From NCBI RefSeq assembly GCF_003334815.1, contig NZ_QOWO01000089.1: 2,037 bases of DNA, one strand, 5' to 3'. This document shows, piece after piece, positions 1-1,201 of this stretch. Below the pieces are notes generated by a model. It was not told where the DNA came from. It saw nothing but the letters and a program-made list of their open reading frames with translations, and made no database searches. The position numbers and the translations under genes were made by a program. Every line of letters starts with the position of its first letter. Position 1 is the stretch's first letter. The stretch comes from Escherichia coli. Its GTDB lineage: Bacteria; Pseudomonadota; Gammaproteobacteria; Enterobacterales; Enterobacteriaceae.

Positions 1-846
1 AACCAGATGGACCCGGTGTACACGCCGGCGCGAAAAATCCACCTGTACCACTGCGACCATCGCGGCCTGCCGCTGGCCCTTATCAGCAAGGAAGGGACAA
101 CAGAATGGTGCGCAGAATACGATGAATGGGGCAACCTGCTGAATGAAGAGAACCCGCATCAGCTGCAGCAGCTTATCCGCCTGCCGGGGCAGCAGTATGA
201 TGAGGAGTCCGGCCTGTATTACAACCGCCACCGCTATTATGACCCGCTGCAGGGGCGATATATCACTCAGGATCCGATTGGACTGAAGGGGGGATGGAAC
301 CTGTATGGATATCAATTGAATCCGATATCAGACATCGACCCCTTGGGTTTATCTATGTGGGAGGATGCAAAATCGGGGGCATGTACTAATGGTCTTTGCG
401 GCACACTATCCGCTATGATAGGTCCAGATAAATTTGATTCTATAGATAGCACCGCATATGGCGCCTTAAATAAAATAAATAGCCAATCTATTTGCGAAGA
501 TAAAGAGTTCGCTGGTTTAATATGTAAGGATAATAGTGGCAGATATTTCTCAACAGCACCTAACCGAGGAGAAAGAAAAGGATCATATCCATTCAATAGC
601 CCTTGCCCTAATGGTACTGAGAAAGTATCAGCTTATCATACTCATGGTGCAGATAGTCATGGAGAATATTGGGACGAAATATTTTCAGGTAAAGATGAGA
701 AAATAGTTAAAAGTAAAGATAACAATATCAAGTCATTTTATTTAGGTACGCCCAGTGGTAATTTTAAAGCAATAGATAACCACGGGAAGGAAATAACAAA
801 CAGAAAAGGATTACCTAATGTCTGCAGAGTTCATGGTAATATGTAA
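1..846 (+). CDS. Rhs family protein, C-terminal portion (end of conserved core plus variable C-terminal toxin domain); 5' partial, ORF is open to the window start
   Basis: Frame 1 is open from nt 1 (aac cag atg...) to TAA at 844-846. The translation contains the conserved Rhs core end ...[45 protein letters not shown], followed by an unrelated AT-rich tail. The core portion matches E. coli RhsA/RhsB-type core ends as I recall them; which paralog cannot be decided from this window. Confidence 0.9.
337..351 (+). other. Rhs core / C-terminal tip junction motif DPxGL (DPLGL), predicted autoproteolytic release site for the toxin tip
   Basis: Codons gac-ccc-ttg-ggt-tta at 337-351 encode DPLGL at the end of the PxxxxDPxGL hyperconserved Rhs region. 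Nucleotide composition drops sharply just downstream. In Rhs/YD-repeat proteins this motif marks the core/tip demarcation and aspartyl autoproteolysis site (established knowledge). Confidence 0.8.
352..846 (+). other. Variable Rhs C-terminal toxin domain (Rhs-CT), about 164 aa, activity unknown
   Basis: Sequence after DPLGL ([17 protein letters not shown]...[22 protein letters not shown]...NVCRVHGNM) is AT-rich and unrelated to the core. It has six Cys and an HTH...SGKD arrangement (HTH at nt 637-645, SGKD at 685-696). Position and composition are typical of a displaced polymorphic toxin tip. Confidence 0.7.
805..810 (+). promoter_or_regulatory. Shine-Dalgarno-like element (AAAGGA) for the 818 start codon
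   Basis: aaagga at 805-810, 7-nt spacer, ATG at 818. It lies inside the 3' end of the toxin ORF, consistent with translational coupling. Confidence 0.4.
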
Positions 847-1201
847 AAAAATATTGTTTAGGAACTGTGTCATTGTATCTTTGTTTGTTTTTACATACAA
901 CACATGGGCGCAGTGTAATAATAATATTAAAATAATGCGCAAGTATGAAAGTGAAGGTAAATATACCGTTAGAAATTTGGTTAAAAATAAAGCTATAGCA
1001 TTGGAATTAGCTGAGATATATGTTAAGAATCGTTATGGACAGGATGCCGCAGAAGAAGAAAAACCATACGAAATCACTGAGTTAACAACAAGTTGGGTTG
1101 TTGAAGGTACCATTCACTTAGACCAAATTGCTGGTGGGGTTTTTATTATAGAAATAGGCAAAAATGATGGGAGAATTCTGAATTTTGGCCACGGAAAATA
1201 A
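818..1201 (+). CDS. Putative cognate Rhs immunity protein (127 aa), possibly with N-terminal signal peptide or membrane anchor
   Basis: ORF starts 29 bp before the toxin stop codon (818 vs 846) and is preceded by an SD-like AAAGGA. AT-rich like the toxin tip. N-terminus [32 protein letters not shown] has a basic n-region, hydrophobic core and a TWA-Q candidate cleavage site. Size and position match what I recall of yhhH downstream of rhsB in E. coli K-12, unverified. Alternative in-frame starts at 833 and 935 cannot be excluded. Confidence 0.6.

Follow-up and report, generated by a model that had tools for sequence, protein, structure and literature searches.

The DUF4329 (Tox-JAB-2) toxin tip of Escherichia coli RhsB, a predicted JAMM-type hydrolase with a possible periplasmic target

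Among the JAB domains carried by bacterial toxins, the closest described class to the locus presented here is Tox-JAB-2 (= DUF4329 in Pfam), which was defined in silico for domains of Rhs and other polymorphic toxins, with "E, H[ST]H, S, D" as its conserved signature, and paired with immunity proteins of Imm-NTF2 family 2 (Zhang, de Souza, Anantharaman, Iyer & Aravind 2012; PMC3482391). The same authors mention phage versions of the toxin, describe the toxin JAB domains as being without the residues that line the ubiquitin-tail tunnel, and favour a nuclease role for them by analogy with RadC. Their sister clade Tox-JAB-1, on Rhs proteins of Bacteroidetes, forms a sequence family of its own (motif NxxxE, HxH, S, D) from another phylum and with another immunity family, Imm65, described in that work as a lipoprotein; although compared by description only, this signal-peptide lipoprotein immunity parallels what we find for YhhH and YbbC, the partners of E. 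coli RhsB and RhsD. Several genome surveys have since called DUF4329 an RNase domain, citing Ma et al. 2017 (Environ Microbiol 19:345), and in one paper Tox-JAB-2 appears in a list of "characterized" nuclease domains. RhsB/YhhH and RhsD/YbbC are founding examples of Tox-JAB-2, and the RhsB tip is a member of it, with the same motif, the same Rhs C-terminal position, the same immunity family and no structural difference. Its identity, JAB classification and immunity pairing are thus already catalogued and the object is not new. The published guess at the function of the class is a nuclease, whereas we read it as a periplasmic hydrolase, and what we add is a modest advance, i.e., family-wide evidence from sequences that would favour a periplasmic target over a nuclease.

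The window, i.e., the whole stretch of 2,037 bases that was analysed, is E. coli chromosome 3' of nikR (99.9% identity by megablast) and runs from the 3' end of rhsB through yhhH and a HEAT-repeat pseudogene to the start of yhhI (ISEc1/H-repeat transposase). Its features are the following.

1..351, plus strand: 3' end of the RhsB core (RefSeq rhsB), with RHS domain PF03527 at ORF residues 11-47 (E 6.2e-15)
7..846, plus strand: rhsB ORF, open at the 5' end of the window; M1 is nt 7 in the residue numbering used here
337-351, plus strand: DPLGL motif at the core/tip boundary, read from the ORF
352..846, plus strand: toxin tip at the C-terminus of RhsB, SMWEDAK...HGNM, 164 residues and a stop codon (coding nt 352-843, stop 844-846)
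448-804, plus strand: DUF4329/Tox-JAB-2 domain proper, within the tip
505..507, plus strand: E167, predicted general base or water-activating Glu of a JAMM-type site, in the block E-x-x-G (EFAG)
523..606, plus strand: span from C173 (523-525) to C200 (604-606), a probable disulfide pair by covariation
637..645, plus strand: H211-T212-H213 (H211 637-639, H213 643-645), predicted zinc ligands (HxH) by conservation and position in the model
685..696, plus strand: S227-G-K-D230, the SxxD of the JAMM motif; D230 (694-696) is the predicted third zinc ligand
818..1201, plus strand: yhhH, cognate immunity gene, 127 aa (PF15631; RefSeq "protein YhhH")
1291-1656 (RefSeq 1306-1656): HEAT-repeat pseudogene, a YibA-like "putative lyase" fragment (NCBIfam PRK09687 positions 1-81 of 285, E 3.5e-31)
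1797-2037: start of yhhI, ISAs1-like ISEc1 (H-repeat) transposase, continuing past the window end

The DPLGL motif is presumably the self-cleavage site established for Rhs/Tc proteins, and the fall in G+C from ~0.57 in the Rhs core to 0.31-0.43 over the tip (windows nt 301 to 825; ~0.35 downstream of the core as a whole) is the classic Rhs core/tip junction. The end of rhsB is overlapped by yhhH for 29 nt, with AAAGGA at 805-810 (AGGA) lying 7 nt 5' of the ATG at 818, an arrangement that suggests that the toxin and immunity genes are translationally coupled; with a second in-frame ATG, at 833, as its start, YhhH would have a more canonical signal-peptide beginning (MVICKK...). Further 3', the HEAT-repeat fragment is interrupted by an in-frame stop at 1549-1551 and its 3' part is missing before the IS element, from which it is parted by a spacer very rich in A+T (G+C 0.30); it has the look of an orphaned immunity gene, left over from an RhsA-type module, behind rhsB-yhhH.

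The arrangement is common in the species. By megablast, the window was matched over at least 80% of its length in 2,786 of 5,426 complete genomes, and the tip together with yhhH reached 99% identity or more in 2,633 of the 3,127 matching E. coli records (the matches span 3,125 of the 5,426 genomes), with yhhH intact alongside the tip in every case among the matches listed. Some strains carry IS1 insertions in or beside the rhsB tip (H16, i.e., E. coli CP8-3_Sichuan, and P0009/P0010), from which IS1-DUF4329 fusion ORFs result, and one genome has two yhhH annotations.

The original prediction, made from the letters alone, had read 164 residues after DPLGL as a toxin domain of unplaced family with six cysteines, an HTH-containing block and an FSGKD string, all of which our reading of the ORF returned at the same positions, and had tentatively pointed to a DUF-type domain with a conserved HTH motif on some Rhs C-termini. 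That domain can now be named: the tip matches Pfam DUF4329 (PF14220) with an E value of 3.7e-39 at ORF residues 148-266, covering model positions 2-114 of 116. All 68 aligned relatives match PF14220 as well. The Tox-JAB-2 arrangement is complete, with the RHS domain and DPLGL upstream, the DUF4329 tip at the C-terminus and an Imm-NTF2-2 gene downstream, and the order of Rhs core, DUF4329 tip and Imm-NTF2-2 gene recurs in two distant loci (L004 and L005). The paralogous RhsD tip, ~50% identical, keeps all six cysteines and is followed by the gene for YbbC. Directly 3' of rhsD-ybbC in E. coli EC361 (L002, 2185-2898) lies an orphan Rhs C-terminal fragment with its own DPLGL and a different Cys-rich tip, annotated as incomplete and followed by an IS3 element, i.e., a typical displaced-tip array. 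Matches to the tip in the AlphaFold database (AFDB) include RhsB and RhsD themselves (UniProt P16917 and P16919) and, at rank 34, a 1,605-aa protein attributed to Trichuris trichiura (A0A077ZH48) that joins RHS, DUF4329, Imm-NTF2-2 and a DDE transposase and is 98% identical to the tip; this is almost certainly E. coli rhsB-yhhH-yhhI DNA mis-assembled into, or contaminating, the whipworm genome.

Other collections gave little. NCBIfam holds no model for the RhsB tip, PHROGs gave one weak match of unassigned function, and neither the tip nor a more typical family member matched any of 50,697 phage records by tblastn. Ten longer DUF4329 proteins that are not Rhs proteins also had no NCBIfam model, so that no fused cell-wall-binding domain that would hint at a substrate was recognised in them. 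At least one DUF4329 protein that is not an Rhs protein (P0262, 650 aa) contains AISQPGDPYEQEADRIA in its N-terminus, a stretch that resembles the DUF4157-type leader of toxins on extracellular contractile injection systems, and three members of the family (P0194, P0233, P0250) have Sec- or lipoprotein-like signal peptides of their own.

An exhaustive phmmer search over 1.84 billion cluster representatives recovered 730 relatives at E<=1e-3, from which conservation was scored over 124 DUF4329 domains that span the query, clustered at <=50% identity. The residues of the Tox-JAB-2 motif, E167, H211-T212-H213, S227 and D230, are all present in the RhsB tip and are nearly fixed in the family: E167 is conserved in 100% (124/124), H211 and H213 in 99% each, T212 in 97%, S227 in 97% and D230 in 99%, together with G170 (98%) and F226 (98%), while N158, S161, G188, P201, T248 and P249 are family-specific positions conserved in more than 90%. 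The motif lies far beyond chance. The alignment also sharpens the original prediction, which had offered E164 to E167 as the motif glutamate and the whole 11-residue block around HTH (starting at nt 631) as invariant-looking. E167 stands, and E164, with a conservation of only 59%, was rejected as the catalytic residue; likewise HTH itself (97-99%) and, to a lesser degree, Y210 (86%) and G214 (87%) are conserved, whereas the ADSHG that follows HTH is variable, and the block as a whole was rejected as an invariant unit.

The five residues of the JAMM motif, E-x(n)-H-x-H-x(7)-S-x-x-D, thus occur in order and conserved, with a different spacer. Thirteen residues separate H213 from S227 in RhsB, and F226, which opens FSGKD (nt 682), is 13 past H213, as had been counted; the noncanonical spacing had been raised as a doubt about a JAB/MPN-like layout. 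It turns out to be a trait of the whole family and need not count against JAB: of the 124 domains, 67 have 12 residues between HxH and S and 19 have 13, and inserted loops raise the number to as many as 35, while Glu and His mostly lie 41-44 residues apart.

The predicted fold agrees with the motif. An AlphaFold2 model of the tip built on the 68-sequence alignment (pLDDT 95.4, pTM 0.89) has the MPN/JAB alpha-beta fold, with E167 immediately before strand 53-59, HTH at the end of the next long strand (90-97), and SxxD at the N-terminus of the helix 113-120 that follows the HTH strand, a placement which we take to be the JAMM arrangement. Foldseek matches with the tip model were much weaker (best PfJAMM1, E 0.018), and the best structural matches were all JAMM/MPN proteins. 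The JAB/MPN-like layout proposed earlier is supported by the conserved motif, the model fold and the published Tox-JAB-2 class. Sequence relationships to known JAB proteins are nearly absent: only 7 of the 68 members match the Pfam family Prok-JAB, at E 0.03-0.1 (best 0.029) and none at or below 0.001; neither the tip sequence nor the family profile had a meaningful match among PDB chains; and an hhalign comparison of that profile with E. coli YicR, a RadC-like JAB protein, gave nothing (probability 0.07). This near-absence of matches argues that DUF4329, as modelled, would be a remote and separate branch of the JAB fold outside the classical JAB Pfam families. The JAMM/MPN+ zinc isopeptidases (AfJAMM, PfJAMM1, Rpn11, CSN5, BRCC36, AMSH and the bacterial Cap3 and BilC), none of which has a significant sequence or profile match to the tip, have an H-to-S spacer of 7 where DUF4329 has 12-13 or longer; the tip differs further by extra N- and C-terminal elements with cysteines, by being probably extracytoplasmic, and by the absence of a partner resembling ubiquitin. 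RadC-like JAB proteins (E. coli YicR; PDB 2qlc) are cytoplasmic and do not form toxin/immunity pairs, unlike the RhsB tip. We regard it as quite likely that the tip has the fold and the site of a zinc-dependent JAMM-type hydrolase.

The six cysteines of the tip are C126, C131, C163, C173, C200 and C273, and two of them vary together across the family. Of the 124 domains, 53 have Cys and 68 have Tyr at position 173, and 65 have Cys at position 200; 51 have it at both positions, Cys173 occurs without Cys200 in only 2, and ~60 domains combine Tyr173 with a residue other than Cys at 200. Owing to this covariation, C173 and C200 are probably a disulfide pair, one that is absent from about half of the family. 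The other four cysteines are found only in the enterobacterial clade, which has N- and C-terminal extensions, and all six occur together in 9 representatives.

The immunity side of the locus speaks to the compartment. Residues 60-127 of YhhH (nt 995-1198) are Imm-NTF2-2 (PF15631, E 5e-26), and a search of YhhH against the PDB gave no match. Residues 1-31 (nt 818-910) resemble a signal peptide, in which a basic segment and a hydrophobic core are present and T-W-A stands at the end, followed by QC, and W30-A31 are invariant in homologues down to 57% identity; YhhH as a lipoprotein was considered and rejected, since its Q at position -1 is out of keeping with a lipobox. In an E. coli variant of YhhH (P0090) the mature part is nearly identical and the first ~30 residues are unrelated, MKYIIFLFRAIWLALSLLILFFSMHRLSLWA, again signal-peptide-like, a swap that suggests selection to keep YhhH exported. 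In E. coli 98198 and U1 (H42 and H43), where only the yhhH part of the query matched, an 87%-identical gene for an "NTF2 fold immunity protein" adjoins a gene for a pentapeptide-repeat protein and may be an orphan immunity gene.

YbbC, the YhhH paralogue 3' of RhsD, begins with MKYSSIFSMLSFFILFAC, which is lipobox-like (ILFAC), and every other full-length Imm-NTF2-2 lineage that we retrieved has a hydrophobic N-terminus, e.g., the variants from Enterobacter (MLITAIIYLFITSESA), Salmonella (MKRILMGIYLLFPICSVA) and a metagenome (MKWIISIFLTLATLSTAHC). Genomic contexts were sampled from six single DUF4329 proteins, and in the four with a usable downstream gene (L003, L004, L005 and L006), all of them distant toxins, that gene encodes a signal-like N-terminus. 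Two of the products are not recognisably Imm-NTF2-2: that of L003 starts with MKMMRALFLLLIAGLPLEQGLC and runs into the contig end, and that of L006 starts with MGPRAALIALLVLGAAGAVVVG and has no Pfam family on record. In all, A-x-A-like or lipobox-like hydrophobic N-termini, judged by eye and hydropathy and not with a dedicated predictor, were seen in YhhH, YbbC, the Enterobacter and Salmonella variants and the products of L003, L004 and L006; the YibA-like HEAT immunity fragment further along the window, by contrast, lacks a signal-like N-terminus.

Exported immunity proteins are a hallmark of effectors that act in the periplasm (Tae/Tai, Tge/Tgi, Tle/Tli). The signal-like N-termini on the immunity proteins, together with the covarying C173/C200, therefore favour action in the periplasm, which we consider probable on these sequence features; the same observations support the earlier suggestion, which had leaned on the cysteine content and on the N-terminus of the downstream ORF, that the enzyme works outside the cytoplasm. 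The closest functional analogues are the amidases Tae1-4 of type VI secretion systems (T6SS) with their periplasmic Tai proteins, which combine exported immunity with an amide-bond-cutting toxin. The likeness is one of function only: Tae1-4 are small stand-alone effectors with a papain-like or NlpC-P60 cysteine-peptidase fold, whereas the DUF4329 tip has an unrelated fold and is part of an Rhs protein.

The alternative that survives best, and that we still hold to be unlikely, is a nuclease (RNase or DNase) acting in the cytoplasm. It is the role that Zhang et al. 2012 (PMC3482391) preferred for toxin JAB domains, and later genome surveys have repeated the label for DUF4329. As far as we could follow it, however, the label goes back only to predictions. 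A review of Ma et al. 2017 describes tests limited to Rhs-CT1, -CT3 and -CT5 and calls CT5-CT8 "putative" RNases, and because of this account we read "RNase" as a prediction, one that appears to descend from the RadC analogy; the nuclease activity of RadC is itself a conjecture, and a 2024 preprint states that the activity "is still unknown". The literature that we searched, in which Ma et al. 2017 was covered through papers citing it, yielded no biochemical or toxicity data for a DUF4329 tip. The two features that point to the periplasm also count against a nuclease, i.e., the covarying Cys pair in the toxin and the immunity proteins, since immunity to cytoplasmic nucleases is normally cytoplasmic, yet all the full-length immunity proteins examined are signal-like.

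A second alternative, for which we see a small chance, keeps the periplasm or envelope as the site of action and makes the tip a hydrolase of the wider deaminase-like fold, acting either on a non-peptide substrate (e.g., a nucleotide- or lipid-linked envelope precursor) or as a deamidase or deaminase. The conserved residues of the family are, however, the JAMM set, E...HxH...SxxD, and not the deaminase set, [HC]xE...PCxxC, and the structural matches described above likewise point to JAMM/MPN proteins. Least probable of all is that the tip is an inactive relic and rhsB an unexpressed fossil in strains without a T6SS (to our knowledge K-12 is one): the pseudogene and ISEc1/H-repeat immediately 3' and the IS1 insertions in some strains do speak of decay at the locus, but the tip ORF is intact with every family-invariant residue kept, tip and yhhH are kept at near identity in most of the matching records, with yhhH intact among the matches listed, and such a reading bears on whether particular strains express the gene and leaves the identity of the domain untouched.

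Returning to a JAB-like tip that hydrolyses an amide or isopeptide bond of the envelope in the periplasm and is countered by YhhH, a proposal that as a whole we judge somewhat better supported than not, we infer the following for its delivery route and compartment, for metal binding and catalysis, and for the substrate and mode of immunity. By analogy with other Rhs proteins, the tip would be packed inside the Rhs shell, released by cleavage at DPLGL and carried to neighbouring cells by a T6SS. In its active site, zinc would be held by H211, H213 and D230, with E167 activating a water molecule and S227 assisting. Once in the periplasm of the target, the enzyme would hydrolyse an amide or isopeptide bond of the envelope, most plausibly one in the stem peptides or cross-links of peptidoglycan or the one that ties Lpp to peptidoglycan. 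In the producer, YhhH, with its NTF2 fold, would be exported by its own signal peptide (Sec), and would bind and block the tip in that compartment.

A cell-wall amide bond is our leading guess at the substrate, a tentative one, because JAMM enzymes cut isopeptide bonds and the periplasm offers several bonds of that type, i.e., the D-Ala-mDAP and mDAP-mDAP cross-links, gamma-D-Glu-mDAP and Lpp-Lys-mDAP; we know of no precedent for a JAMM-fold enzyme that cuts peptidoglycan. Extended to the family, it is conceivable, if rather doubtful, that Tox-JAB-2/DUF4329 tips are not nucleases at all and could be zinc hydrolases of the JAMM fold, stabilised by a disulfide and active in the periplasm, with an isopeptide-type bond of the envelope as their target (e.g., a peptidoglycan cross-link, gamma-D-Glu-mDAP or Lpp-Lys-mDAP). 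If this were true, no earlier JAMM enzyme would, as far as we know, have had a substrate in the cell wall, and the class would be an uncommon instance of Rhs toxins directed at the periplasm.

Few "mystery" genes of E. coli K-12 were sequenced as early as those for RhsB and RhsD, and about half of the complete E. coli genomes that were searched carry the RhsB tip at an identity of 99% or above. PAAR-Rhs-DUF4329 effectors are also reported from more than 150 Salmonella serotypes (PMC10469887). A periplasmic target, if true, would shift assays of these toxins from nuclease tests to cell-wall chemistry, and DUF4329 effectors would be counted differently in inventories of T6SS effectors.
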